Shown here: one piece after another, positions 4,277-60,912 of the stretch | How positions within the stretch are numbered: position 1 is the stretch's first letter | Layout: every line of letters begins with the position of its first letter | Sequence record: MN850639.1 | DNA length: 64,000 nt | Direction: 5' to 3' (one strand) | Origin: Escherichia phage radambza | The notes under the pieces: model-generated | The model's input: the letters and a program-made list of their open reading frames with translations, nothing else | Told to the model about the DNA's origin: nothing | Databases searched by the model: none | Translations under genes and position numbers: made by a program

Positions 4277-6976
4277 ATGGAAAACGTAGATTTTAAAAAC
4301 TTACATTTGGTTGGTGATACAGAAACTGATGGTTTACTCCTTGAGTTCACTAAAGTGCACGTAATGGCTTTCGCAGACTATAAATCTGACGAGGAAGAGC
4401 CACCTGTATGGGTCTTTACAGATGAACCTATCCTCGGTCACAAGTACACCAAGTACATCAAGGGTGGCTTACGTGAAGGTATTGAGTTTGCGTTAAAGGC
4501 AAAACGTCTTTGCATCCACAACGGTCTCGGTTATGACTGGTGGGTTTTCAATCACATTGCACCTGATTTATGGAACTTTGATAATCCAAAGTGTAAACCG
4601 TGGAGTAATTTCTTTCAGGATTCTCTTATCCAGTCTCGTGTTCAGTGGATGGATAGACCAACTCCAAAGGGTTATAAAGGTGCTCATGGTTTGGCTGCAT
4701 GGGGTGCTCGTGTTGGTGTTCGTAAACCAGAGATTGAGCATTGGGGTGTGTGGAATGCAGAAATCTTCACTCGTGTTGTAGAAGATATCCGTATTAACGC
4801 CAAAACTAAACGGGCACTTGATAACGAGTATCTCAAGCTTAAGAAGTGTGGCATAGACACTTATGAAACCTACATGCGAGCTAAAGAAACATCTTTCTGG
4901 ATGAGTCAACAAGCTATTAATGGTTGGAAAGCTGATAAAGAGCTTATGGAGTTCCATGTAAAGGAACTTGACAAGTTGACTAATGAGCTTGCTTCAGAGG
5001 TTGAACCACATCTTCCTCCAACTATTAAGACTAAAGGTAAAGTTACTGGAGAAGAGTTTGCAAAAGCTTGGAATGAGTATGTTGAAGCGTTCGGTCATGC
5101 AGATGGACTGAAGAGAATTACCAAGTACCCTAAGACGAAGTACCGTCAGCAGGTACGTAACGGTGAGATGCAGACATATGAAATCAAGCCATTTGGTAAG
5201 CCAACTACAAAGATTTTTAACATTGAAAAAAGAAATTGCTATACACCAACCAACACTGTAACTGGTGAAGAGTACAAGGAAGGTTTTGTAGCAATGAAGG
5301 ATGCTCGTGCAATTTGCAATGCGTTGAACGCAAAGATTGGTAAGAAATGCAAAGACTGGAAGCCAGTAAAAACAGTCAAAACTGTGAAGTACTATAACAG
5401 TCACGTTGTTAACCACTTTGAACTTGAGTCAAGTCGCTACACAGGTTTGATTGATGCACCATATACACCAATTGAGTTCGAAGTTTCTCGTATGACTCAG
5501 GTAGCAGTTGTTAAAGACTACTTGAAATCAGTTGGTTGGATTCCAGATGACTGGAACTACAAGAAAGACTCTGATGGTCGCCCTGTCAAAGTTTGTCGTT
5601 TCAAAGACAATAAAAAGATGATTACAAAGCATCCTAAGTGGCAGGAAATGGTTGAGCGGTGTGGTTTGAGTTATGTTGAACATGAAGGTGTACAGTACAT
5701 CGAGCATAACTGGTCTGTGAAGAAATACACAGATTTGCTTGAACCTTGCTTAATCCGTACTTCACCAAAACTTACTGAATCATCTTATGATACGATTGAA
5801 GGTGAGCTTGGACAGAAGATTGCTAAGTACTATACTTTGATGCACCGACGCAGAACTATTGAGAACTCAAAGGATGATGAAAAAGGTTGGTTGAACCAGA
5901 TTCGTCCTGATGGTCGCCTTAGTGCTGGTGCAATGGTATTTGGTACTTCAACTGGACGTATGACACAATATGGTATTGTAAACGTACCGTCTGGTGCTGC
6001 TGTCTATGGAGCACCTATGAGGGAGGTGTGGACTTGTGAAGATGGTACAGATATCATCTCCGTAGACCAAAACTCAGCCCAGCTAGTTCTTCTTTGTAAC
6101 TTTATGGGTGATGAAGACTTCACTAAAGCGGTAACTGAGGGTAAAGAGTCAGTAGAGTTCACTAAGCAAGATGATGGTAGATACTACTGTAAGCATCTTG
6201 ACAAGTATCTTAACCCAGAAACTGACAAGTATCTGCGTTATGATGCTGAAAATGACCTCTATGAAGTCTACACAGGGACTGATGCACATACACTGAACAG
6301 TATTTACTTTGGTCTGAACAAAGAAGAAGATATTGTTCGTTGTAGGGAGACACAGGATGAGGAACTTCTTCACGAAATTACAAAAGGCCGTAAGAAGGCT
6401 AAGAATGGCATCTACGCCCTGTTATTTGGAGCCGGAGACGAGAAGTTTGCAAAAACTATCAAGGCATCATCTACGGAAGAGGGTGCGTTAACTAAACAAA
6501 CTTACTTTGTGCGCCTCCCTAAGATTAAGAAGCTGCTGGACAGGTTAGAGGAAGACTTCAAAGCAACTAAGAAAGCACTTGAAGAGGTTTTCGGAAAAAC
6601 TTCTGCAATTGCCAAAGGTGGTTATATCAAAGTTGCTGGAGCGTGGTTATGGTGTAAATCTCCACATAAGTTATTGAATTACACACTTATGGGTAGTGAG
6701 GCTCAGGTGCAGAATGAGGGTATTAACTTGGCTAACAGAGAGTTAACAGAGCGTAAGCTTACAGTCCTAAATGGTAGGAAGCCCGCTATTGGTGCTAGGT
6801 GGGTCTGTAGTTACCACGATGAGGTCTCTTTAGAGGTTCCAACAAAAGATGTACCTGATGTTAAGGAGATTATTGATAGAATGTATGGTCAAGCATCAAA
6901 AAATCTTGGATTAAAGAGTAAGACGCTTGTTACAGGCACTGGTAAGGTAGGTAAGACATGGTACGCCGTACACTAA
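4277..6976 (+). CDS. DNA polymerase, family A (Pol I / T7-like) with 3'-5' exonuclease
   Basis: 900 aa ORF; start moved to ATG 4277 behind RBS AGGGAG; exo motif DTETDG; C-terminal motif C SYHDEVSLEV (HDE). Confidence 0.85.
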   Translation: MENVDFKNLHLVGDTETDGLLLEFTKVHVMAFADYKSDEEEPPVWVFTDEPILGHKYTKYIKGGLREGIEFALKAKRLCIHNGLGYDWWVFNHIAPDLWNFDNPKCKPWSNFFQDSLIQSRVQWMDRPTPKGYKGAHGLAAWGARVGVRKPEIEHWGVWNAEIFTRVVEDIRINAKTKRALDNEYLKLKKCGIDTYETYMRAKETSFWMSQQAINGWKADKELMEFHVKELDKLTNELASEVEPHLPPTIKTKGKVTGEEFAKAWNEYVEAFGHADGLKRITKYPKTKYRQQVRNGEMQTYEIKPFGKPTTKIFNIEKRNCYTPTNTVTGEEYKEGFVAMKDARAICNALNAKIGKKCKDWKPVKTVKTVKYYNSHVVNHFELESSRYTGLIDAPYTPIEFEVSRMTQVAVVKDYLKSVGWIPDDWNYKKDSDGRPVKVCRFKDNKKMITKHPKWQEMVERCGLSYVEHEGVQYIEHNWSVKKYTDLLEPCLIRTSPKLTESSYDTIEGELGQKIAKYYTLMHRRRTIENSKDDEKGWLNQIRPDGRLSAGAMVFGTSTGRMTQYGIVNVPSGAAVYGAPMREVWTCEDGTDIISVDQNSAQLVLLCNFMGDEDFTKAVTEGKESVEFTKQDDGRYYCKHLDKYLNPETDKYLRYDAENDLYEVYTGTDAHTLNSIYFGLNKEEDIVRCRETQDEELLHEITKGRKKAKNGIYALLFGAGDEKFAKTIKASSTEEGALTKQTYFVRLPKIKKLLDRLEEDFKATKKALEEVFGKTSAIAKGGYIKVAGAWLWCKSPHKLLNYTLMGSEAQVQNEGINLANRELTERKLTVLNGRKPAIGARWVCSYHDEVSLEVPTKDVPDVKEIIDRMYGQASKNLGLKSKTLVTGTGKVGKTWYAVH

Positions 6977-46718: not shown

Positions 46719-47596
46719 TTAAAGCAAAGACTTACCCAGACTTCAAAGAGTTTGTGAAGGGCTTCGTTGCGAACGTAAAGGCTGGTAAGAGATATGATTT
46801 TAGAACATATCAAGAGGCTATTTTACCACTTACCTATAGTTCGTATTGGCCTGAAGCTGATATTGCAGAAGTTAAGAAGTTTGACTACAAACCAGACTAC
46901 AAAGTTCCATTTAGTGATGAGTTGCTTTACAGCGTTGGTGCTCAAATGAGAACGTCTGACTTCTTCATGGACTTACAATATGCAATTATCAATGGTAAAG
47001 ACGTTGATACAGTTTATTGTGAATGGCTGGCAAGAGTTAAACCGTTCTCAATGTTGAATGCTAAGTTGAAGGATGCTATCAAGCCACCATCAATCACTCA
47101 GCAACCAACCAATCAAACAGTAAATGAAGGGGGTACACTTACCCTAAGCGTTATTGCAACTAATGCCACTGGATATCAATGGAAAAAGGATGGTGAGGAC
47201 ATCCCTAGTGCCAATTCTGCAACTTACACAAAACAGTCAGTAGCACCTTCTGACGCTGGTTCATACACTTGCGTTGTAACAGGTGCAGGTGGTTCTGTTA
47301 CTTCTAGCCCTGCAACAGTTACTGTGAATGCACTTCCGGTAATCACTCAGCAACCAACCAATCAAGAAATCACTGAAGGTGAGACCTTAACACTGAATGT
47401 TGTGGCAACAGGTGCGACAGGTTATCAGTGGAAGAAAGGTGAGGAAGTCATCCCAGACGCAACTGCTGCAACTTACACCAAAGAAGGTGCAACCGCTGCT
47501 GATGCAGGAAGCTACACCTGTGTAGTGACTGGCGCAGGTGGCTCTGTAACATCTAATGCGGCAACAGTTACAGTTAACCCAGCAGGGGAGGCATAA
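46715..47596 (+). CDS. protein with two tandem Ig-like domains
   Basis: 293 aa; two about 83 aa repeats (ITQQPTNQ...GYQWKK...ATYTK...DAGSYTCVVTGAGGSVTS..ATVTVN) resembling I-set Ig domains; ends at the endolysin start. Confidence 0.6.
   Translation: MIKAKTYPDFKEFVKGFVANVKAGKRYDFRTYQEAILPLTYSSYWPEADIAEVKKFDYKPDYKVPFSDELLYSVGAQMRTSDFFMDLQYAIINGKDVDTVYCEWLARVKPFSMLNAKLKDAIKPPSITQQPTNQTVNEGGTLTLSVIATNATGYQWKKDGEDIPSANSATYTKQSVAPSDAGSYTCVVTGAGGSVTSSPATVTVNALPVITQQPTNQEITEGETLTLNVVATGATGYQWKKGEEVIPDATAATYTKEGATAADAGSYTCVVTGAGGSVTSNAATVTVNPAGEA
47087..47584 (+). repeat. tandem duplication of about 249 bp inside the Ig-like gene
   Basis: Two consecutive copies (about 47087-47335 and 47336-47584) encoding the two Ig-like repeats. 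Confidence 0.6.
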
Positions 47597-53276: not shown

Positions 53277-54659
53277 TAAAATTTTATCGGTTGTTCCAAC
53301 CTCTGGGTCACCATCACATGTGAATAAAATATCTACCCTTCTTAACAACCTTCTTAAGCTTACTCTCTATATATAGTTATATAGTACTATATAGTATCTT
53401 AGTATCTATCTAGTGGTCTTAATAGCCCCTCTGTATAAACCTTCTAAACACTCTTCTAACAAGCCTTCTTAACAACCTATACAATCACCTTAACCATCCC
53501 TCTACACCCTCTTAGAAGCTCCTATACACCTCTTAATCTCTATGTCAGCTATGTTACCCTCTATAGGTGTTCACTAGGTATTACTAAACCTCTATATAGA
53601 CTGTTTTAACAAACTTAACAGGAATATCTTTACAGACCTTATCTCACAAGGTCTAACACGGTACTAACAAGGTATCTTATAAGCCTGTTATTACCTGTAT
53701 TTTTAAAAGGCTGTATAGGTAATTATTCAGAATCTTAAAATTTTTATAAAATAGGACTATCAAGTCATTTTTTAGGGTCTTTGAAGGAACTGAAAAATAT
53801 CTGTAGAGGATGTATATCTGCTTGGTAGCCCTTAACAGCTCCCTTACAAGTACTTTGCAAAATTTTAAAATATCCTTAACAATCTCTTAACAGTTCTCAC
53901 ATCTTCTTAACAACTCTTCAAAGGTCTTAACAGTTTCTTAACAGAACTAACAAGGGCTTAACAGTTTTCTAGGGATTGGTAACAATACCAATTAACAAGT
54001 GCTGAATAGTCTTTACAGAGGCTTAACAGATGACTAACAAGAGCTAACAAGTTAATTTTAAAGAGTTATTTTGTTAAGATAATTAACAAGTTCCTAACAA
54101 GTGTTTAATCTTTTTAACAAGCTGTTAACATGGTCACTACTCTTTTCTTATCGTTCCCTTTCCTTTCTTAGTGATTCTTTAAACATACCTCTTAAAAGCT
54201 CTGTATAGCTCTGCATAACCCCTTTTAAGTCTCTTCCTAGTATCTACAGCCCAACTATACAGACACCTCTTTATAAGGCTTTACAGAAGCTTTAAAGGCT
54301 ATGTCAAAGACTCTTACAAGGCTTTTACGTGGTCTTAACAGAGATTTAACAAGGGGCTAACAAGTTGCTAACAAGTGCCTTAAAAGCATAACTATGTAGG
54401 ATTTGTTAAGAAATTGTTAAGAAAATGTTAAGGGGGCTAGCATTTACGTAACTTTTAAGCTACTTCAAAGTAACTTTTAAGCCCCTATAACATACTTTAA
54501 GACACTAACAAGCCCTTTTTAGTTATTCACAAGATAGCTAACGAGATGATAAAGCTTACACCCTTATAAGATTCTTTTAAGGCTCTGGGAAGCTCTAGGA
54601 AGGGCTTTTTAGAGTGGGTTAATATGATTGCTTAAGTTAGGTTGATAAGGCTGTTATAG

Positions 54660-54689
54660 AGCGTTTTAGAGCGTTTTAGAGCGTTTTAG
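54660..54689. repeat. tandem repeat (GAGCGTTTTA) x3
   Basis: Three exact adjacent 10-mers inside the heptamer-repeat region. Confidence 0.7.
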
Positions 54690-54853
54690 TGGTTGCCCTT
54701 CCCTTTCGGGTTATGGGCTTACATTTAAGGGAAAGATTAAGTTGATTTGATAAAAGGCTATAGAGTAGACTATAGAGTTATTGCTTTTTAAGGTCTGGTA
54801 AAGTTCTGACTTGTTAGGTGGGTTTTAAGATTCTGGAAAGGAATTTGATAGAC

Positions 54854-54879
54854 GTAAAAAAAGCCCCATTTAAGGGGCT
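54854..54879 (-). terminator. rho-independent terminator ending the leftward small-gene array
   Basis: On the minus strand AGCCCC-TTAAAT-GGGGCT followed by TTTTTTT. Confidence 0.55.
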
Positions 54880-54917
54880 GTAAAGGTATCTGGGGCTATT
54901 TAGCCCCGTTGCGGCGT

Positions 54918-55166
54918 TTAGTTAGTGCCTTCTTTGTCGTAGTACAGGGAGACAATTTTTTCACCCCAGTAGTGGTATGTATAACCCTCTTTGAGAGCTT
55001 CCTGTTTTGTTTCTTTCCAGAATTCATCAGAGGGGTTGTAGTCACTGATGGTCTGGCTGATAAGGCCTTTCACCATTTCAAAGGCGTTATCAGTACCTAC
55101 AAGGTCAAATTTAACGTCCAGAGAGTAGAAGCCAAATTCGTTAACAGTTGCGCGGATAGTAGCCAT
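54918..55166 (-). CDS. hypothetical protein (82 aa)
   Basis: Preceded by cassette A copy 1. Confidence 0.5.
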   Translation of the reverse strand: MATIRATVNEFGFYSLDVKFDLVGTDNAFEMVKGLISQTISDYNPSDEFWKETKQEALKEGYTYHYWGEKIVSLYYDKEGTN

Positions 55167-55271
55167 TTTTGAATCTCCAGTTTAGGAAGTTGATTAAGGG
55201 TTTTATTTAGTGGGGAAGGTCATTCCCTCCCCGTTGATTGACAATTTACAAACTTTTGATTGTCTCGTCAA
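55167..55271 (-). promoter_or_regulatory. cassette A copy 1: sigma70-like promoter + 5' hairpin + RBS
   Basis: Minus strand TTGACG-17 bp-TAAATT, then hairpin GGGGAGGG-AAUGA-CCUUCCCC, then GGAGAUUCAAAAAUG. Confidence 0.55.
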
Positions 55272-55776
55272 TATCTTTTTCAATATCTTTTAAAGTTTTT
55301 TCTAAGTTCTTGATATTGAAAGATAAGCCTTCCCCCAGTGTCTTAGAGTAACCGCTAGGACGTGAGTCATAGAGTTCGATTTCTTCCACTTCGAAGAGGC
55401 TAACCAACTCACCGCTTACACTGTAAGCCATTGAAACAGTATTTACAGGGGCTTTATAGAACTTGTTTAAAGACTTGATAGAACGCTCGTAAGCCATTTT
55501 ATAGCCATTTAAAAGGTCTTTAACGTGGTTACGAACGTTTTTACACTCATCTAAGTAAATCTCTAAGAATAACGGTAATAATTCTGCTACAGCTTGCATA
55601 AAGTGAGAGACTACAACGGTTGCAACATTACGACGATGGATATAATAAGCCCCGTTTTCTGATTTGGTGATGGTTGCAAAGTGTACACCGTTGCAGCGGA
55701 ATTCATAGGTATCTTTAACAGGCTTAGACATTACAGCATTTGAGCGAATGTAGTTGATAGCTCGAAATTTGTTCAT
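55246..55776 (-). CDS. hypothetical protein (176 aa)
   Basis: Track ORF reads through the cassette; trimmed to the ATG that directly follows the cassette RBS. Confidence 0.5.
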   Translation of the reverse strand: MNKFRAINYIRSNAVMSKPVKDTYEFRCNGVHFATITKSENGAYYIHRRNVATVVVSHFMQAVAELLPLFLEIYLDECKNVRNHVKDLLNGYKMAYERSIKSLNKFYKAPVNTVSMAYSVSGELVSLFEVEEIELYDSRPSGYSKTLGEGLSFNIKNLEKTLKDIEKDIDETIKSL

Positions 55777-55868
55777 TTTTGAATCTCCTAGTTTAAGGAC
55801 TTTGTTTAGTGGGGAGGTCATTACCTCCCGTTGATTAGTAATTTACTTGTTTTGATATCTGATTGCAA
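55777..55868 (-). promoter_or_regulatory. cassette A copy 2
   Basis: TTGCAA-17-TAAATT, hairpin GGGAGGUAAUGACCUCCC, RBS AGGAGA, ATG. Confidence 0.55.
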
Positions 55869-55997
55869 GCAATTTTTTAAGTTTATCTATAAAGAATCTT
55901 TTAAGTTAATCCCTTTTAGATAAACCCCCTCGAACAAATCTACCAATGTCAAGGGGCGTTGTCAATACTTTTTTGAAAGTTTTTTGTAAGTTATTGA

Positions 55998-56339
55998 TTA
56001 ACTGATGAATATTTTTTCAGGTTTTACATAGCTGATACGCTGACTTTTTAGCAGGTCATCCCAGATTAACGCGGCGATATGGGCATAACCGGATTCACGT
56101 AATAACTTCATCGTTTTACATCTCGTTTCAAATCGGGTTGCGTAGAACTCGCTGTTTAAAGTCGTTTTCTTCCCTTCATTGTCTACATGGATAATCTGCA
56201 TCACTTGAAAGGGGCTTGTGTCCTCGCCTTTGTTCCACTGTTCAAAGTATTTTAGGCACTGCATAGGCGACATCTTATCACTAACCTGAGTTGACCAAGA
56301 TGAACCCTCTTTATCAGTAATTACGGTTACATAAGCCAT
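55998..56339 (-). CDS. hypothetical protein (113 aa)
   Basis: Trimmed to the ATG after the cassette RBS. Confidence 0.5.
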   Translation of the reverse strand: MAYVTVITDKEGSSWSTQVSDKMSPMQCLKYFEQWNKGEDTSPFQVMQIIHVDNEGKKTTLNSEFYATRFETRCKTMKLLRESGYAHIAALIWDDLLKSQRISYVKPEKIFIS

Positions 56340-56432
56340 TTTTTGAATCTCCAGTTTAGGATTTTGTTTAGTGGGGAAGGTCATTCCCTCCCCGTTGATG
56401 TGTAATTTACAGATTTTTATCAGGCTTGTCTA
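56340..56432 (-). promoter_or_regulatory. cassette A copy 3
   Basis: TAGACA-17-TAAATT, hairpin GGGGAGGGAAUGACCUUCCCC, RBS GGAGA. Confidence 0.5.
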
Positions 56433-56663
56433 GTCTTTTTCTATAATTATTTCATATTGACCGTCTACACTATCGAAATAGATACCATCTTCATCTTCTG
56501 TCTTAAAGTAACATTGTATGTCATCACTGGCGGGATAGTCTTGTCTTGCTATCTGGCAAACTTGAATAGCATTTTCTTTACTTCCTGTAAACTCCTCAAG
56601 CCCTTTAAAATCACATGAATGGCCATTACAAATTGAGAGGATGAGATAAACGGTTGTTAGCAT
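56430..56663 (-). CDS. hypothetical Cys-containing small protein (77 aa)
   Basis: Hydrophobic N-terminus then acidic region; no cassette directly upstream. Confidence 0.45.
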   Translation of the reverse strand: MLTTVYLILSICNGHSCDFKGLEEFTGSKENAIQVCQIARQDYPASDDIQCYFKTEDEDGIYFDSVDGQYEIIIEKD

Positions 56664-56675
56664 GATTTAAGCCCT

Positions 56676-56697
56676 CTAAAAGCCCCTACAAGGGGCT
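56676..56697 (-). terminator. possible intra-array terminator or attenuator hairpin
   Basis: AGCCCCT-TGT-AGGGGCT hairpin then a short U run on the minus strand. Confidence 0.3.
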
Positions 56698-56729
56698 AAT
56701 CAGTGTTTATAAGGTGATTGTGTAGGTTT

Positions 56730-57272
56730 TTAGAAAAAGCTCTTTAAATCCTCTTCTGCGATGTTTCCCGTTAGTGTGTCCATGATGTCACAAAAAACCT
56801 GAATACTGTCCGACTGTTGGACACTTTTAGCAAGAAGCTCCAGAGACTCATCAAGATAATTTAAATTTGGGTTATCCAATGAAGGAAGACAAAAAGGCGA
56901 ATACATAGCGTTAAACTCTGTTACGTAAACCTTTTTAATCCAATTTAAATCGAAGTATTCTGTAAAACTTGCTACGCCAGACATATTATCACAAGAATAA
57001 TCGTCATTTAGGTCATCCTCTGGGATATCAAGTTCTAAGATAACAATATTTTGGGTTTTCATCTGGAAAGCGGCCGTAATAGTGGCATTACCTAACGCTT
57101 GCTGGATACCTTCAGAGATTATCTCTTCCTCATCGTCGCCATAGATTTTATTTTCTGGGTACACGTAAAAATTGCCGTCCATATCCGAACAATTCCATGC
57201 ACCTGATGGCTTGTCACCGTTATTAATCAGGTTGAGGAAATTTTCTTGGGTAGTTCCGTGATAGCATTTCAT
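56730..57272 (-). CDS. hypothetical acidic protein (180 aa)
   Basis: Preceded by cassette B copy 1. Confidence 0.5.
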   Translation of the reverse strand: MKCYHGTTQENFLNLINNGDKPSGAWNCSDMDGNFYVYPENKIYGDDEEEIISEGIQQALGNATITAAFQMKTQNIVILELDIPEDDLNDDYSCDNMSGVASFTEYFDLNWIKKVYVTEFNAMYSPFCLPSLDNPNLNYLDESLELLAKSVQQSDSIQVFCDIMDTLTGNIAEEDLKSFF

Positions 57273-57363
57273 TTTTGAATCTCCTAGTTTAAGGATTGAG
57301 TGATTAAGCTCTTTATCTGGGGCTTAAGATATCAACTTCCAAGCCCCCTGTAAAGTACTTTAT
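57273..57363 (-). promoter_or_regulatory. cassette B copy 1: palindrome + hairpin + RBS
   Basis: Minus strand near-palindrome TGTAAAGTACTTTAT, hairpin GGGGGCUUGGAAGUUGAUAUCUUAAGCCCC, then GGAGAUUCAAAAAUG. Confidence 0.5.
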
Positions 57364-57563
57364 TTGTTATTTTTGACAACTTTTAAAACTGCAAGATAAC
57401 CTAAGCAATAAGAATCACCGAAGAGAGTCCTACCCATGAAAGAGTCCTCTTTGATATCCTTTGCAGTGACAGTTTTCTCTACGCCGTGGGAAAGGACTAC
57501 ATCACCAACTTTAATATCTTTGATGTGAGTTGTTTCAATGTGTAAGCCGTTAATAATAGCCAT
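57360..57563 (-). CDS. hypothetical protein (67 aa)
   Basis: Preceded by cassette A copy 4. Confidence 0.45.
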   Translation of the reverse strand: MAIINGLHIETTHIKDIKVGDVVLSHGVEKTVTAKDIKEDSFMGRTLFGDSYCLGYLAVLKVVKNNK

Positions 57564-57654
57564 TTTAGAATCTCCAGTTTAGGATTTTATTTAGTGGGAA
57601 GGTCATCCCCTTCCCGTTGATGTGTAATTTAATCTATCTAAAAACCAGTGTCAA
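57564..57654 (-). promoter_or_regulatory. cassette A copy 4
   Basis: TTGACA-17-TAAATT, hairpin GGGAAGGGGAUGACCUUCCC, RBS GGAGA. Confidence 0.6.
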
Positions 57655-57663
57655 CAAAATTTT

Positions 57664-58068
57664 TTAGAGTTCTGCATAAATTGCATCACAGACATCGCGA
57701 AAATCATGATTTGTCAAATTACGTTGTAACCAAGTGGCAAAGAAATCAGCGATTGCAAAATTAGCGTCATACTCGACAGATAACCATACTTTCACGGCAA
57801 ATCGAAACATTTTTAAATCAAGCTCTTTATTCATTACCTTCGATTTGCCTAACATGTCAGCCATTTCATATTGCGCACCGTCTAGCGTGATACCTGCTGC
57901 AACGTCAGCCAATGAACTTTTTACGTTTTCAACGTCTAAGATAACGCTTTGAATCTTTCCGATAATGTTGTGCAATGTTTCATCAGGCGCTGATGACGTC
58001 ATGATATTGATTCGATTAACGGTCAAGCGTGCTTTTAAGATTGATAATTCACGGTTATTAATAGCCAT
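57664..58068 (-). CDS. hypothetical protein (134 aa)
   Basis: Preceded by cassette B copy 2. Confidence 0.5.
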   Translation of the reverse strand: MAINNRELSILKARLTVNRINIMTSSAPDETLHNIIGKIQSVILDVENVKSSLADVAAGITLDGAQYEMADMLGKSKVMNKELDLKMFRFAVKVWLSVEYDANFAIADFFATWLQRNLTNHDFRDVCDAIYAEL

Positions 58069-58158
58069 TTTAGAATCTCCAATTTAGGATTGAGTGGTAA
58101 AGTTCTTTATCTGGGGCTTACTTTATCGAACTATAAGCCCCCTGTAAAGTACTTTACA
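58069..58158 (-). promoter_or_regulatory. cassette B copy 2
   Basis: Perfect 16 bp palindrome TGTAAAGTACTTTACA (58143-58158), hairpin GGGGCUUAUAGUUCGAUAAAGUAAGCCCC, RBS UGGAGA. Confidence 0.55.
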
Positions 58159-58426
58159 CTAAATGCAGTTTTTTACCTTTTACTATAATGTAACTCGATG
58201 CACTATTGCTTTGCACATCCTGATAAATTCTGCGCAAACGGCCTTCATAGTGTACTTTCCAACTGGTTGGAATCTTTTTACCGTATCCGGTAGCAGTTTT
58301 TTGGAGTCCTGCGACTTGCCAATCTAAGATATGTTGTTCAGCTTGTAAGTCTTCAAAGTGCATGACACCATCTACATAGTGACGTAGTGTGACATTTAAA
58401 GTGCGACCGTTGTTAGTAGTATACAT
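58154..58426 (-). CDS. hypothetical protein (90 aa)
   Basis: Preceded by cassette A copy 5. Confidence 0.5.
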   Translation of the reverse strand: MYTTNNGRTLNVTLRHYVDGVMHFEDLQAEQHILDWQVAGLQKTATGYGKKIPTSWKVHYEGRLRRIYQDVQSNSASSYIIVKGKKLHLV

Positions 58427-58518
58427 TTTAGAATCTCCAGTTTAGGACTTTATTTAGTGGGGAAGGTCATCCCCTTCCCGTTGATGTGTAATTTAATCTA
58501 TCTAAAAATCAGTGTCAA
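58427..58518 (-). promoter_or_regulatory. cassette A copy 5
   Basis: TTGACA (58513-58518 rc)-17-TAAATT (58490-58495 rc), hairpin GGGAAGGGGAUGACCUUCCCC, RBS GGAGA. Confidence 0.6.
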
Positions 58519-58847
58519 GAATTTTGTTTTCGTTTGCTCAACTCTTGAACAATTACAGCATGATAGTCTTTCAAGTCACTGATGTTTAAAGCATTTATCA
58601 GAGAATTATAATCATCAACTAACTGAAAATCATCTTTGAAGATGTCACTTATCTGATAGGTTTTGGCTTTATATCTGAAGCTCATCTCTAGCCGCTTTAT
58701 TTGCTCATCACTGAGACGTCCTAGAAAGCTTTCTACAAGGTTATTGCTAACCTGCTGTGTGATTGCCTTATTTGCTAGATTATAGGCTTTATATGCCTTA
58801 TATAGCGCGAAAATGGCAATGATTGCAGTGATACCAGTCATTAACAT
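58515..58847 (-). CDS. hypothetical membrane protein (110 aa)
   Basis: N-terminal TM GITAIIAIFALY; overlaps the upstream gene end, so co-transcribed without its own cassette. Confidence 0.5.
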   Translation of the reverse strand: MLMTGITAIIAIFALYKAYKAYNLANKAITQQVSNNLVESFLGRLSDEQIKRLEMSFRYKAKTYQISDIFKDDFQLVDDYNSLINALNISDLKDYHAVIVQELSKRKQNS

Positions 58848-59137
58848 GGTGTTTCCTCTTTACGTGATACTTTGCCACTTACAGTTATCTCATAAGATTC
58901 TAATAAATCGCTTTTAGACTTTACAGGGCTTTTAAAAGTATCATCGTAAATATTGACTTGCAATACAGGTTTTTTATACTCCCTGCAACTACTCCATAAG
59001 CAAATCACTACACGACGGCCTTTGATTTTTCCGTGTAACCATTCCATAACATCATGACTATTCCTTGATGTTTCAATGAAATCAATTTTATTAAGTAACT
59101 TGCTTAGATTTTCACGGACTTTATTTGATAGTTTCAT
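58841..59137 (-). CDS. hypothetical protein (98 aa)
   Basis: Preceded by cassette B copy 3. Confidence 0.5.
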   Translation of the reverse strand: MKLSNKVRENLSKLLNKIDFIETSRNSHDVMEWLHGKIKGRRVVICLWSSCREYKKPVLQVNIYDDTFKSPVKSKSDLLESYEITVSGKVSRKEETPC

Positions 59138-59226
59138 TTTTGAATCTCCAGTTTAGGATTTAGTGGTAAAGCTCTTTATCTGGGGCTTACTTTATCGAAC
59201 TATAAGCCCCTTGTAAAGTACTTTAT
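59138..59226 (-). promoter_or_regulatory. cassette B copy 3
   Basis: Near-palindrome TGTAAAGTACTTTAT, same GGGGCUUAUAGUUCGAUAAAGUAAGCCCC hairpin, RBS GGAGA. Confidence 0.5.
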
Positions 59227-59606
59227 CAGTTAATTTTGAAGATTGTTACATAACCATCGCTCCCGATGATTTGTGATACTCCAGCTTTTTCTACTTGATA
59301 GCCCATATTTTCAAGATGATAAATAGCGTCATCGTAACCATATGCGCCACCCTGATAACGTCTCTTATCGCATCTTATCAGGTTTTTTCCACGCCCAGCA
59401 AGTGCATGTAGAATTGTTTTTTCACTTGAAAGAGTGCCATCTAACATGGTTGCCGTGTAATGGTTGATTTTATTCCCGTTGATATCATACTTAAAATTGA
59501 ACGAGTGAACAACAATCACATTACCTTTGAAATTTTCATCAAGTGACTTCTCCAGTACGCTACGAAAGTTGTCTTTGTTGATGAATTTAGGCGCACGATA
59601 TTTCAT
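59226..59606 (-). CDS. hypothetical protein (126 aa)
   Basis: First gene of the array; preceded by cassette A copy 6. Confidence 0.5.
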   Translation of the reverse strand: MKYRAPKFINKDNFRSVLEKSLDENFKGNVIVVHSFNFKYDINGNKINHYTATMLDGTLSSEKTILHALAGRGKNLIRCDKRRYQGGAYGYDDAIYHLENMGYQVEKAGVSQIIGSDGYVTIFKIN

Positions 59607-59698
59607 TTTTGAATCTCCAGTTTAGGACTTTATTTAGTGGGGAAGGTCATTCCCTCCCCGTTGATGCAAATACTAGATAACCCCGTTCAAAGAGTCAA
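59607..59698 (-). promoter_or_regulatory. cassette A copy 6
   Basis: TTGACT-17-TAGTAT, hairpin GGGGAGGGAAUGACCUUCCCC, RBS GGAGA. Confidence 0.55.
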
Positions 59699-59819
59699 GA
59701 AAAATTTTAAAAATATCTTTGGCAAAACTGTAATGAAACGGGCGCACACGACTACCACAAAACAGAACACAAATCAAGAATTATTTTTCAATCCGCTACA
59801 AATTTTTCTCTTGACTTTT

Positions 59820-59850
59820 GGGGAGAGGGGGAGTAAGAGGGGGAGAGGGG
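59820..59850 (+). repeat. G-run tract (possible G-quadruplex former)
   Basis: GGGGAGAGGGGGAGTAAGAGGGGGAGAGGGG: four G runs of 4-5 in 31 nt within an AT-rich genome. Confidence 0.5.
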
Positions 59851-59869
59851 TTGGTCTGGCTCTCTATAA

Positions 59870-60050
59870 AAACCTACCTGCACGATTCTAAAATGATTTT
59901 TCTTGCCCGACCTGAGCGGGGTCTGCACGTTTTGAAAATGAAAAAGCCCTTTGGAGATTACCTGCACAGTTTGAAAATGAATTTTCTCTTTGGAGTTCAA
60001 AATTTTCTCTACAGATTTCTATACAGAACTCTACCTGCACAATCCTGAAA
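59870..60050 (+). repeat. four dispersed repeats YCTGCAC-N-TT-N-GAAAATGAA
   Basis: CCTGCACGATTCTAAAATGA, TCTGCACGTTTTGAAAATGAAAAAGCCCT, CCTGCACAGTTTGAAAATGAA, CCTGCACAATCCTGAAATGAAAAAGCCCT. Confidence 0.5.
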
Positions 60051-60126
60051 TGAAAAAGCCCTCCTTACCTGAAAAATTTACCAGATAAGAAAGGCTTAGT
60101 CTATTATGAATATTCTACAGAGTTTC

Positions 60127-60912
60127 TTAGTTCTTTGCGTCTAAGAAGGTAACTTCTGGTGAAGAGAAGATTGCCTCGATATCCTCATCAGTTCTTGCAT
60201 AGATATAAGCTTCTGCATCACTACCAAATGTTACAGCAATTCTGTGATTGCTCTTCGACAGGTGGGTAACTAGAGCGTTGCTTAGAGACATCTTTTCAAC
60301 CGGAGGGTTACTTTGATGTATCTTACCTTTTCTTCGTCTGAAGAGGGTAACTGCATTATCCGTGAACACTGCTACACCTGCAAAGTATCCTGGCTCACAG
60401 TAGTTTTTCCAACCTGAGAGTAACTTGTGGTACATATCACCTTCATAGACATACAGATAGACATCTACACTCTTCATCACCTGATTGATGATAACTGTGA
60501 CAGCTTGAGGGTCAAGTCCACCGATACCTGCACCAATCATAGGTAGACCGACTTTCTTCAACTGATTCACTTCACAGTATCTGTTAAGTTGCTTCAAAGA
60601 TGACTCTAAAGCACTGTATCGGGCATCTTTACCAGTCTTAAGCTGAGTGTAAAGGTTAGCTATACGACCTTGTTTTAAGCGTGCTACAGAGAAATTACCT
60701 AGTAAATTCTCACAAGGTTTGTGACCTATACCACCTGCATAGAGATAAACTTCTGTATCGGTCTCATATGCTTTTGGGTAAAGTTTAGAAATCTTGTCAG
60801 CGATACCTGCACCCATTAGGTTCATGCAGTTACAACCATGACCAATGATGTCAAACTTACCTTTATCAAATGCAGCAAAGATATCACCATTGATGATTTT
60901 TACAATACCCAT
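60127..60912 (-). CDS. macro-domain-like protein (putative ADP-ribose binding/hydrolase) with C-terminal extension
   Basis: N-terminal GDI...DIIGHGCNCMNLMGAGIADKI and later GLPMIGAGIGGLD resemble the two macro-domain signature blocks; 261 aa. Confidence 0.5.
   Translation of the reverse strand: MGIVKIINGDIFAAFDKGKFDIIGHGCNCMNLMGAGIADKISKLYPKAYETDTEVYLYAGGIGHKPCENLLGNFSVARLKQGRIANLYTQLKTGKDARYSALESSLKQLNRYCEVNQLKKVGLPMIGAGIGGLDPQAVTVIINQVMKSVDVYLYVYEGDMYHKLLSGWKNYCEPGYFAGVAVFTDNAVTLFRRRKGKIHQSNPPVEKMSLSNALVTHLSKSNHRIAVTFGSDAEAYIYARTDEDIEAIFSSPEVTFLDAKN

Follow-up and report, generated by a model that had tools for sequence, protein, structure and literature searches.

The closest described counterparts of the elements reported here are the PeSLs (promoter-early stem-loops) of T4-like phages, known from RB49/phi1, T4/PST and KVP40/nt-1 (PMC2839356, Arbiol et al. 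2010; PMC4122927, Comeau et al. 2014). The T4/PST promoter consensus, TTTACW-N17-TAYWAT, is similar to that of the class B cassettes below (PMC4122927). Our cassettes appear to match PeSLs in architecture and behaviour: both are intergenic cassettes of ∼100 bp with an upstream stop codon in an AT-rich stretch, sigma70-like −35 and −10 hexamers, a G-run/C-run stem-loop that lies over the −10 or between the two hexamers, and a Shine-Dalgarno (SD) sequence with start codon, and both cluster around ORFans in plastic early regions, where indel and replacement breakpoints between close relatives fall inside them. They differ in that the present phage belongs to another subfamily, the Ounavirinae, and the sequences are unrelated; the class A stem-loop follows the start site, in the 5′UTR, the class B stem, ∼20 bp long, takes in the −35 as well as the first 15 bases of the transcript, and two classes here have one long RBS module in common. 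Promoter and terminator activities and mini-circles have been measured for PeSLs; the present cassettes are described from their sequence.

The SAS/ESAS elements of cluster K mycobacteriophages (PMC3203893, Pope et al. 2011) are also similar. There, too, many non-structural genes have a conserved asymmetric SD-containing motif a few nucleotides ahead of the ATG; about half of them have an imperfect inverted repeat just upstream, and the gene families concerned vary by phage. These elements are unrelated to the cassettes in sequence and host, and SAS were not proposed to contain a promoter. RNA pairing is unsupported for the ESAS arms, whereas the arms of class B covary. The RNase III sites of T7 early mRNA are ∼20 bp intergenic hairpins with an internal loop, located between early genes; after cutting, the upstream message keeps a 3′ hairpin and the downstream message begins at a defined 5′ end. 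These sites contain no promoters and have no sequence similarity to the cassettes. In bacterial promoter-coupled terminators, as described in a preprint (Fletcher et al. 2026, 10.64898/2026.08.19.745784), the end signals of one transcription unit likewise overlap the start signals of the next, although these terminators are canonical, with a U/A tract that contributes to the promoter, and the cassette hairpins have no U-tract.

The genome papers on Felix O1 and Mordin had already noted the repeats themselves, without interpretation. The former lists them as direct repeats (PMC3185647, Whichard et al. 2010), of which the 57-bp repeat CTTTACATGGGGCTTAAAAGTCTGTAAAGTAAGCCCCAGATAAAGAGCTTTACCACT corresponds to class B and the 39-bp repeat TTGACACTGGTTTTTAGATAGATTAAATTACACATCAAC to the class A promoter; its five putative promoters are other sequences, and it calls the temporal control of transcription unknown. 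The Mordin paper compared its own 26-bp repeat to the cluster K SAS (PMC4611695).

Organization of the early gene array

The window, the whole 64-kb stretch of DNA analysed, is from a Felixounavirus, a Felix O1-like myophage, and matches 257 phage records, nearly all Felix O1-like. Its minus-strand block at 54.9–59.7 kb contains 11 ORFan genes (54918–59606; 126, 98, 110, 90, 134, 67, 180, 77, 113, 176 and 82 aa) and nine cassettes, six of class A and three of class B, with a cassette in front of nine of the 11 ORFs. One of the other two ORFs overlaps its predecessor (ATGTTAATGA at 58847), and the second (ATG 56663) has its own SD and comes after a terminator-like hairpin (AGCCCCTTGTAGGGGCT plus TTTT, 56678–56697, minus strand) that follows the gene behind cassette B3 and is missing from a stricter terminator scan because it has just four T residues. 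None of the 10 array proteins scanned (all but that at 55166–54918) has a significant Pfam match, in agreement with an earlier description of the block as an ORFan array; a single weak match, to DUF3139, is below cutoff, and all 10 belong to PHROGs of unknown function.

Upstream of the array, the scan lists an intrinsic terminator (60056–60097, minus strand) that closes the preceding macro-domain gene unit and is t13 of Felix O1 (PMC3185647 Table 2). The array ends (54855–54912, minus strand) in a cassette remnant, CAACGGGGCTAAATAGCCCCAGATACCTTTAC at 54912–54880, fused to a canonical intrinsic terminator (54879–54862 followed by seven T residues), and no terminators between array units are listed by the scan.

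Nearly every small early gene of this phage has one ∼90-bp cassette, of one of two kinds. Judged from their sequence, the nine elements are probably PeSL-type composite regulatory cassettes, in which a sigma70 promoter, a stem-loop and an RBS are combined and which also act as recombination substrates. Each would give its downstream ORFan a promoter for host (sigma70) RNA polymerase, a G/C-clamped stem-loop and an RBS module.

A common RBS module

All nine cassettes end in GGAGATTC(A/T)AAA(A)ATG. The sequence GGAGATTCWAAAATG is present in eight copies in the window (0.01 expected), all on the minus strand from 55164 to 59618, and a ninth, GGAGATTCWAAAATG-like copy with one extra A is positioned just before the ATG at 56339–56337. 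Repeat grouping of the gaps places the ATGs at 59606, 58426, 57563, 56339, 55776 and 55166 in class A and those at 59137, 58068 and 57272 in class B; tRNA genes and a tandem duplication aside, no other repeat family in the window is larger. The repeat grouping and the GGAGATTCWAAAATG count support the nine cassettes and two classes of the first-pass annotation, which was also correct in giving both classes the same RBS, a single module of standard form CCTAAACTGGAGAnnnAAAATG.

The 3′ module, CCTAAACTGGAGA... ATG, is shared by both classes and is also found in cassettes without either hairpin, so it could itself be the functional core, a start-associated sequence acting as a translation-initiation signal or as the site at which a phage factor or an RNase acts on early mRNAs, with the upstream parts mattering less; the likening of the Mordin repeat to SAS (PMC4611695; PMC3203893) points the same way. 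This would leave the conserved promoter hexamers and covarying hairpins unexplained, and in Kolesnikvirus the class B promoter-hairpin is kept with a different RBS module (CCCTTATAAAGGAA). We consider it very improbable that the module is the core, albeit compatible with a composite cassette as an extra layer.

Class A cassettes

Class A cassettes consist of an A-tract, TTGACA, a 17-bp spacer and TAAATT, followed by a G/C-clamped hairpin. In a profile of 105 distinct copies, numbered from the C of CAACGG, T−12 and A−11 have 1.92 bits, T−7 has 2.0 bits and the TTG of the −35 has 1.4–1.8 bits, with a 17-bp spacer and AAAAAA at −45 to −40. Each of the 37 variants of the hairpin folds, with its stem beginning directly after AAC, and the class A UTRs of the window fold with z-scores of −1.8 to −2.5. 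Hexamers and folds are those expected from the earlier description, a near-consensus sigma70 promoter and then a hairpin, GGGGAGGG/CCTTCCCC; class A is a predicted sigma70-type promoter.

The six copies are all on the minus strand. A1 (59604–59698) has TTGACT-17-TAGTAT at 59698–59670, a predicted start at about 59663/59662, a hairpin at 59659–59639, RBS GGAG and ATG 59606. The hexamers are TTGACA-17-TAAATT in both A2 (58424–58518; hexamers 58518–58490, predicted start 58483/58482, hairpin, RBS, ATG 58426) and A3 (57561–57654; 57654–57626, predicted start 57619/57618, hairpin, RBS, ATG 57563). A4 (56337–56432) has TAGACA-17-TAAATT at 56432–56404, a predicted start at 56397/56396, a hairpin, an RBS with an extra A and ATG 56339. 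A5 (55774–55868) combines TTGCAA-17-TAAATT at 55868–55840 and a predicted start at 55833/55832 with a variant hairpin (GGGAGGT/ACCTCCC), RBS CTAGGAG and ATG 55776, and in A6 (55164–55271; TTGACG-17-TAAATT at 55271–55243, predicted start 55236/55235, hairpin, ATG 55166) 13 nt are inserted before the RBS module. In A2 the −35 and the stop codon of the gene upstream overlap.

Class A transcription is predicted to begin at the C or A of CAACGG, and a 5–8-bp hairpin would therefore begin 3–4 nt from the 5′ end. Stem-loops near the 5′ end protect E. coli mRNAs from decay, and the position of the class A hairpin would fit such a role.

The class B promoter

Class B had been described as replacing the promoter with a palindrome. 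However, 49 of 52 distinct class B cores, drawn from Felixounavirus, Mooglevirus and Kolesnikvirus, have TAnnnT behind TTTACA with a spacer of exactly 17 bp; a spacer of 17 or 18 bp is found in 51/52 and any other spacer 0–4 times. Fourteen different TAnnnT hexamers are used, with T, A and T nearly invariant and the three middle bases free. TG is present at −15/−14 in 25/49, G at −14 in 39/49, and an A 7–8 nt past the hexamer in 47/49. The core TAAAGTACTTTA has three exact copies in the window, and a promoter consensus scan lists all three window copies (minus strand). These are B1 (59135–59228), with TTTACA-17-TAAAGT at 59217–59189, predicted start A 59181, an interrupted ∼20-bp hairpin at 59225–59167, RBS and ATG 59137; B2 (58066–58160), with a perfect 16-bp TGTAAAGTACTTTACA, TTTACA-17-TAAAGT at 58148–58120, predicted start A 58112, long hairpin, RBS and ATG 58068; and B3 (57270–57362), with TG before TTTACA-17-TATCTT at 57354–57326, predicted start A 57318, long hairpin, RBS CTAGGAG (a 1-nt insertion) and ATG 57272. 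TTTACA is a −35 of the T4-early type.

In this AT-rich region promoter-like hexamer pairs per se show no enrichment (16 found against 16.7 expected), and the case for a promoter rests on positional conservation across copies, part of which could be structural since the T at −7 doubles as a stem position and the CTTTA of the −35 as a stem strand. Class B, like class A, looks like a host-type promoter.

Were class B without a host promoter, the palindrome TGTAAAGTACTTTACA could be the operator of a dimeric phage or host regulator, possibly jointly with the similar TAAAGAGCTTTA downstream of the hairpin, and timing would differ from class A. Two sites with identical half-sites (TAAAG..CTTTA), at about −45 to −33 and +4 to +15, form a classic operator arrangement, GATAAAGAGCTTT is almost invariant across three genera, and terminator palindromes can double as transcription-factor sites, according to a preprint (10.64898/2026.08.19.745784). 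Yet the palindrome does not behave as a conserved unit: its right half is TTTACA, and in some copies the left half is unrelated (ATAGACCT, AGATTT) and still pairs with co-varying sequence downstream of the hairpin, which fits a long stem better than an operator bound by a dimer. Kolesnikvirus has AAAAG/CTTTT in place of TAAAG/CTTTA, a change that breaks both palindromes and keeps the inter-arm pair. With the −35/−10 signature in 51/52 cores, and with the class swaps and RT-PCR timing described below, we regard an operator without a promoter as quite unlikely.

The class B hairpin

In class B an interrupted hairpin of ∼20 bp encloses the promoter, and the palindrome is its 5′ strand. This hairpin has a 6-bp outer stem, a 1×1 mismatch, a 5-bp middle stem, a 3×3 loop and a 9-bp inner stem, and with the −10 in the apical loop. 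Compensatory changes are present: 96.7% of cells pair versus 92.2% in shuffles, and the covariation score is 0.143 versus 0.070, each reached by 0/500 shuffles, although the copies are related by descent and probably also by gene conversion, so that these changes are few independent events and the shuffle statistics overstate significance. The arms in slid registers are 32–56% paired. By an anchor-based count, 99% of pairs in the inner 9 bp are canonical, and these positions show GC↔UA and UA↔AU exchanges, with six pair types at one of them; in the outer stem GC↔UA is found in 10 sequences and UA↔AU in 4. Pairing explains only part of the strong conservation of GATAAAGAGCTTT at +2 to +14.

Read-through RNA folds with z = −3.9, −3.75 and −2.5, and the leader from the predicted start is unstructured (z = +0.13). 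The class B hairpin noted earlier, GGGGCTTA/TAAGCCCC, is present as stated; the idea of a shared 5′UTR hairpin is not supported, the class A hairpin being after the predicted start and that of class B upstream of it. Neither class has a U-tract after the hairpin, and classical intrinsic termination is therefore not predicted; no Rfam match was found for the hairpins. A −10 within a G/C hairpin loop recurs in unrelated sequences, in Kolesnikvirus and at an extra promoter-like site (55937–55965, minus strand; TTGACA-17-TAGATT with TG) whose −10 is in the loop of an 8-bp stem, CCCCTTGA/TCGAGGGG.

The ∼20 bp stem with its 3×3 internal loop and covariation would also suit a pure RNA element of polycistronic class A transcripts, likened to the intergenic R sites of T7 early mRNA, that provides RNase III-type processing and a 3′-stabilising hairpin, the hexamers being incidental. 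The strict A-B-A-B-A-B alternation in the window would yield three bicistronic units, and the array units have no terminators between them. However, the T and A of the apical loop and the C and A of the internal loop are unpaired yet invariant and fall exactly at the required −10/−35 positions, with G at −14; in KPS64 and KhF1 up to four class B cassettes follow one another; and PeSLs, whose promoter activity has been measured, provide a precedent for a stem-loop located between the two hexamers (PMC2839356). An RNA element is compatible with a composite cassette and is a rival solely in its lack of a promoter, which we think unlikely.

Read as a composite cassette, class B has an A-rich stretch, TTTACA, 17 bp, (TG)nTAnnnT, a GC-rich discriminator and a predicted start at the A of AGATAAAG. 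The hairpin could be formed only by RNA reading through from upstream, which would most likely be attenuated or cut there (RNase III-type geometry), and RNA begun at the cassette would have an unstructured leader and a free RBS. We infer promoter activity, start sites, RNA processing or attenuation, terminator activity and stabilisation from what is directly visible, namely sequence signatures, covariation and breakpoint positions.

Gene gain and loss at the cassettes

The first-pass annotation proposed two regulatory classes that differ in timing. The sole published timing data, from RT-PCR, place genes behind both classes in both the 5-min and 25-min groups (PMC3185647), with the gene numbers used there assigned to cassettes by inference, and a search of a literature library found no TSS, Term-seq or RNA-seq study of any Felix O1-like phage. 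Cassette class also varies among orthologues, with class A and class B copies numbering 2 and 3 in gene family F0, 1 and 8 in F6, 3 and 1 in F11, 2 and 1 in F13, and 8 and 3 in F8, which has one further unclassified copy reading as class A. Mixed RT-PCR groups and swapped classes do not bear out the proposal.

Gene order is conserved among relatives, and indels correspond to units of a cassette and a gene. Comparison of the window with three relatives gives seven junctions of indels or replacements, every one with a breakpoint inside a cassette. In five indels the two successive blastn segments overlap on one cassette, which thus aligns with both indel-flanking cassettes of the longer genome: window B1 (59226–59135) aligns with AYO145A 1480–1570 and 2427–2517, Felix O1 5901–5978 aligns with window A3 and A4, and the F15 indel is located within A6.

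High identity of the copies and breakpoints inside them would also be seen if the cassettes were selfish MITE-like repeats or a side effect of gene conversion and played no part in regulation. Nevertheless, all copies have one orientation, occupy every usable gap directly before a start codon and carry an RBS, and both the covariation and the retention of TAnnnT around free middle bases are signs of selection, making a selfish origin extremely improbable. Both kinds of cassette mark points of gene gain and loss among related phages. As ∼90-bp near-repeats, the composite cassettes would also be substrates for homologous recombination, which may add, remove and swap units of a cassette and its gene between related phages.

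Genomic context and cassette organization

The 5.7 kb around the small-gene block on the minus strand match 257 phage records at 87–93% identity, nearly all of them Felix O1-like myophages of Escherichia, Salmonella, Shigella and Citrobacter, and the genome is that of a Felixounavirus of the Ounavirinae. In phage Felix O1 its counterpart is the set of small genes flanked by terminators t13 and t23 (PMC3185647). The block contains eleven ORFs of 67–180 aa on the minus strand, spanning 59606–54918. Scans covered ten of their products (all except that of 55166–54918); none has a significant Pfam match, with one weak DUF3139 hit below the cutoff, and all ten belong to PHROGs of unknown function, in keeping with the first-pass annotation, which had found the proteins to be without recognisable domains. 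The Rfam 15 covariance models gave no matches up to E = 1 on either strand of 54500–60200.

Repeat finding sorts the intergenic gaps into six copies of one cassette class (class A, cassettes A1–A6; ATGs at 59606, 58426, 57563, 56339, 55776 and 55166) and three of another (class B, B1–B3; ATGs at 59137, 58068 and 57272), the same grouping as had been described previously. These are the largest repeat families of the window, the tRNA genes and one tandem duplication excepted. The Shine-Dalgarno sequence and start codon form the 3' end of each cassette, with the RBS module CCTAAACTGGAGA positioned 7–9 nt 5' of the ATG. The 64-kb window has eight copies of GGAGATTCWAAAATG against an expected 0.01, always in the block and on the minus strand, and a ninth copy with one additional A is found at ATG 56339. 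The upstream gene's stop codon is found inside ATAAAGT in class B, and either in the A-tract and −35 or immediately before them in class A. One block gene without a cassette overlaps its predecessor (ATGTTAATGA), and another comes after a terminator-like hairpin (56697–56678). At the 3' end of the block is a cassette remnant, CAACGGGGCTAAATAGCCCCAGATACCTTTAC (54912–54880), which joins a class A start to a class B tail and is fused to a true terminator (54912–54855 together). An ORF listing starts two genes 15 codons too early and inside cassettes (55998–56384, start 56384; 55246–55821, start 55821). The RBS module, after which the real start codons lie, puts these starts at 56339 and 55776, and the longer ORFs are artefacts.

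Cassettes were gathered from IMG/VR contigs and from 13 annotated relatives in Felixounavirus (AYO145A, KhF1, Felix O1, NRG857CP1, VpaE1, tootiki and REP9), Mooglevirus (Mordin, Sf16, KPS64 and Moogle) and Kolesnikvirus (M7 and SE5). The IMG/VR scan with CCAGATAAAGAGCT returned for the most part chance single hits, and only multi-hit contigs, which are Ounavirinae, were used. Class B cassettes are also present in GU169904 ('Staphylococcus phage SA1') and MG065664 ('Campylobacter phage A132'), at 98% and 91% identity to the window; these stretches look like Felix O1-type sequence deposited under another host.

Class A cassettes

When 105 distinct class A copies are lined up by their CAACGG and numbered from its C, the profile has the pattern of a sigma70 promoter, with AAAAAA at −45 to −40, TTGACA at −35 to −30 (T, T and G being most conserved), a 17-bp spacer of little information, and TAAATT at −12 to −7 (1.92 bits at T−12 and A−11, 2.0 bits at T−7). 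The consensus scan lists the −35/−10 pairs of all the window cassettes except A5 (TTGCAA/TAAATT, 8/12). On the basis of the profile, transcription is predicted to start at the C of CAACGG or the next A (at about 59662, 58482, 57618, 56396, 55832 and 55235, minus strand), which would place the hairpin 3–4 nt from the 5' end.

All 37 of the different class A hairpin sequences fold, with a 4–8-bp stem that begins directly after AAC; stem variants include GGGGAGGG/CCTTCCCC, GGGAGGT/ACCTCCC, GGGGC/GCCCC and versions with a GAAA loop. In the window, folding of the leaders gives z = −1.8 to −2.5; the RBS remains essentially open, albeit with a 3–4-bp helix touching the first Gs of GGAG. 5'-terminal stem-loops can slow the 5'-end-dependent decay of E. 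coli mRNA, and the most economical reading is that the class A hairpin would do the same. In some GenBank records and in a simple scan, class A hairpins figure as Rho-independent terminators of the opposite strand, on which GTTGATGTGT comes after the hairpin (KhF1, KT184313, 3060–3080 and others; window 57591–57620, plus strand). These calls are probably an annotation artefact and less likely the sign of a block to antisense transcription.

Class B cassettes contain a predicted promoter

The class B cassettes had been read as promoterless and factor-dependent or repressible, with a palindrome in place of the promoter. This reading is not supported: the right half of the palindrome is TTTACA, and TTTACA-17-TAAAGT or TATCTT is listed by the consensus scan in all three window copies. 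Among 125 class B copies from three genera (52 distinct cores), TAnnnT follows TTTACA after 17 bp in 49 of the 52 cores; allowing 18 bp as well brings the number to 51, and every other spacing has 0–4 occurrences. Fourteen different hexamers match TAnnnT, and their information content (1.87, 1.87, 0.45, 0.18, 0.32 and 1.82 bits) reads as the signature of a −10 element. TG is present at −15/−14 in 25 of 49 cores and G at −14 in 39, and an A lies 7–8 nt past the hexamer in 47. The putative −10 occupies the apical loop of the hairpin, and, despite lying in an internal loop, the C and A completing TTTACA show no variation. Judged by its sequence, class B, too, is a sigma70-like promoter, with starts predicted at the A of AGATAAAG (59181, 58112 and 57318, minus strand). 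A reading of GGGGCTTA as the MotA box of a T4 middle promoter was dropped, as it lies ~8 nt from the −10 and the distance in T4 is about 12 nt; it also counts against this reading that no MotA/AsiA-like functions were reported in the Felix O1 genome (PMC3185647).

Nor do published data bear out a difference in timing between the classes: by RT-PCR in Felix O1, the 5-min and the 25-min groups each include genes served by class A and genes served by class B (PMC3185647), the assay being crude and the assignment of genes to cassettes inferred in our analysis.

The class B hairpin

Read-through RNA of class B folds into an outer stem of 6 bp (UAAAGU:GCUUUA) followed by a 1×1 mismatch, a middle stem of 5 bp (CUUUA:UAAAG) followed by a 3×3 loop, and an inner stem of 9 bp, with z = −3.9, −3.75 and −2.5 for the read-through RNAs. 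The RNA from the predicted start is unstructured (z = +0.13). The proposal of a 5'UTR hairpin common to both classes is thus not supported, the class A hairpin lying after the predicted start and the class B hairpin around the −10. For 68 distinct sequences, 96.7% of cells are paired compared to 92.2% in shuffles, and the covariation score is 0.143 compared to 0.070 (0 of 500 shuffles reach either value); slid registers give 32–56% paired. The alignment gaps 13 short-hairpin variants inside the 3' arm and so lowers the counts for three inner pairs, a gap that is avoided by an anchor-based pair count of 95 sequences. In this count, which represents few independent compensatory events given the common ancestry of the copies, 99% of the inner-stem pairs are canonical; GC↔UA exchanges occur there in nine sequences and UA↔AU in 15, and the ninth pair takes six pair types. 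In the outer stem GC↔UA is seen in 10 sequences and UA↔AU in four. The five middle pairs never vary and so are uninformative on pairing.

Left arms that are not palindromic (ATAGACCT, AGATTT and AAATTG) pair with matching altered right arms (AGCTTTAT and AGATTTAT), and a change of TAAAG/CTTTA to AAAAG/CTTTT in Kolesnikvirus loses both 'palindromes' and keeps the inter-arm pair. An operator, with the palindrome as the site of a regulator and GATAAAGAGCTTTAC as the second sequence concerned, has a low probability, as the arms covary. Because altered left arms keep pairing with altered right arms, the conserved unit of class B appears to be the interrupted stem of ~20 bp rather than a dimer-binding palindrome. 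Intrinsic terminators were also considered for the cassette hairpins and rejected: on the coding strand the stem is followed by ACTAAAT in class A and by AGATAAAG in class B, with no U-tract after either, and a coding-strand scan lists no cassette hairpin, with only 54879–54862 and 60097–60056 qualifying.

In its length and internal loop the class B hairpin, an interrupted and covarying helix of ~20 bp, resembles the RNase III sites between the T7 early genes and is a candidate for RNase III cleavage. If RNA were cut at the 3' side of the internal loop, its 5' end would nearly coincide with that of RNA from the embedded promoter. It is conceivable, although we consider it rather unlikely, that class B superimposes a sigma70 promoter and a 20-bp hairpin that is RNase III-type or otherwise processed, such that RNAs initiated there and read-through RNAs cut there share one 5' end, at the A of AGAUAAAG, and one unstructured leader. 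If so, each ORFan would receive an identical message whatever is upstream, a property that would allow free shuffling of units of cassette plus gene. On this same reading, GAUAAAGAGCUUU, near-invariant at the 5' end, could also be a handle for a phage factor that shuts off early messages.

A G/C-clamped stem with the −10 in its loop recurs in unrelated sequences, both at 55965–55937 in the window (minus strand; promoter scan), where TTGACA-17-TAGATT with TG has the stem CCCCTTGA/TCGAGGGG, and in Kolesnikvirus, with TTGACA-18-TAAAAT inside GGGGG...CCCCC. The former is the best promoter match of the block and lies within a 220-bp gap (55880–55998) with no ORF before A5. At this place, Mooglevirus relatives carry a membrane ORF of 46 aa. 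In the window, a brief non-coding leader may arise here, or the gap may mark the loss of a gene. Kolesnikvirus M7 and SE5 (Erwinia/Salmonella phages) retain the class B promoter-hairpin with a different RBS module (CCCTTATAAAGGAA), and they have a further cassette type of TTGCAA/CTTTACA, GGGGTTAYGG...CTATAACCCC and GTCGAAAC, in which a −10 is not obvious at 17 bp.

Comparison with known cassette systems

The cassettes are similar to the promoter-early stem-loop cassettes (PeSLs) of T4-like phages (PMC2839356, PMC4122927) in having a sigma70-like −35 and −10 at ~17 bp (105 class A copies and 51 of 52 class B cores), an AT-rich stretch 5' of the −35 that includes the upstream gene's stop codon, an SD-ATG at the end, an association with ORFans, and indel or replacement breakpoints inside. 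The G/C stem-loop lies between or over the hexamers in class B, at 55965–55937 and in one Kolesnikvirus promoter, and the published promoter consensus of the T4/PST PeSLs is TTTACW-N17-TAYWAT (PMC4122927). They differ in that the class A stem-loop is 3' of the start site, a placement that descriptions of PeSLs do not give as typical, and the class B stem is extended to 20 bp; furthermore, there is no sequence kinship, and the genome is of the Ounavirinae rather than T4-like (Tevenvirinae-type). We regard the cassettes as PeSLs in architecture and behaviour, not by descent. The PeSL stem-loop of RB49/phi1 reduces read-through about as much as a strong terminator (PMC2839356), and PeSLs also have measured promoter activity and recombination mini-circles. 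The SAS/ESAS elements of cluster K mycobacteriophages, a 13-bp GGGATAGGAGCCC located 3–7 bp before the start codon (PMC3203893), are only a looser analogue, the module here being CCTAAACTGGAGA at 7–9 nt.

The elements have been seen earlier as repeats: the Mordin announcement describes a 26-bp RBS repeat 'reminiscent of SAS' (PMC4611695), and Whichard et al. list 57-bp and 39-bp direct repeats in Felix O1, uninterpreted (PMC3185647). In the literature searched we found no statement of PeSL-type cassettes in Felix O1-like phages, and nothing usable on their transcript mapping (transcriptome, TSS).

Cassettes as probable recombination joints

When gene family and cassette class are mapped in 12 genomes, gene order is conserved, and differences in presence or absence always correspond to units of cassette plus gene. 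Cassette class differs within the gene families F0 (two A, three B), F6 (eight B, one A), F11 (three A, one B), F13 (two A, one B) and F8 (eight A, three B, and an unclassified copy readable as class A). In blastn comparisons of the window with three relatives, the breaks between segments fall inside cassettes, and a window cassette aligns with both flanking cassettes of the longer genome; B1 (59226–59135) matches AYO145A 1480–1570 and 2427–2517, which flank an 857-bp two-gene insertion. At the indel of family F15 the segments overlap within A6 (55249–55194), the single Felix O1 cassette at 5901–5978 matches both A3 and A4, which flank the 1.15-kb block of families F5–F7, and two insertions of NRG857CP1 have their boundaries inside A1 and B1. 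The cassettes cluster around ORFans in a plastic region, and as probable recombination joints they explain the gene-content differences of the block among near-identical Felixounavirus genomes.

Other repeats in the window

Four copies of a ~22-nt motif, TCATTTT(N5-7)GTGCAGGTA, lie on the minus strand at 59880–60070 and 59835–59870, between terminator t13 and the first cassette promoter; some have terminator-like fragments GGGCTTTTT just before them, and next comes a C-rich tract, CCCCTCTCCCCCTCTTACTCCCCCTCTCCCC. They could be iterons or regulator sites, and Mooglevirus records annotate a small reverse-strand gene at the counterpart of this region. Two tandem 237-nt copies at 47092–47577 (70% identical, spacing 249 nt) are probably a duplicated small gene. 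The tRNA gene array (37700–43000, minus strand) has repeat families with GGTTCGAATCC-type arms, and a separate 34-nt intergenic repeat, TAAGTTTTGCTGTAAACGGTCTTCTGTAAATTTG, is found at 41763, 42693 and 42860.

Implications

Felix O1-type phages are widely used in Salmonella typing, biocontrol and therapy, and the control of their transcription is stated to be unknown in the Felix O1 reference genome paper (PMC3185647). For the early ORFan block, the cassettes yield nine exact and testable predictions of promoters and start sites, and their hairpins should not be labelled as terminators. They help with annotation in Felixounavirus and with understanding its early transcription and the plasticity of its genomes, but would not surprise a specialist. 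The PeSL strategy, of portable promoter-hairpin-RBS units that double as recombination joints, is not peculiar to T4-like phages.
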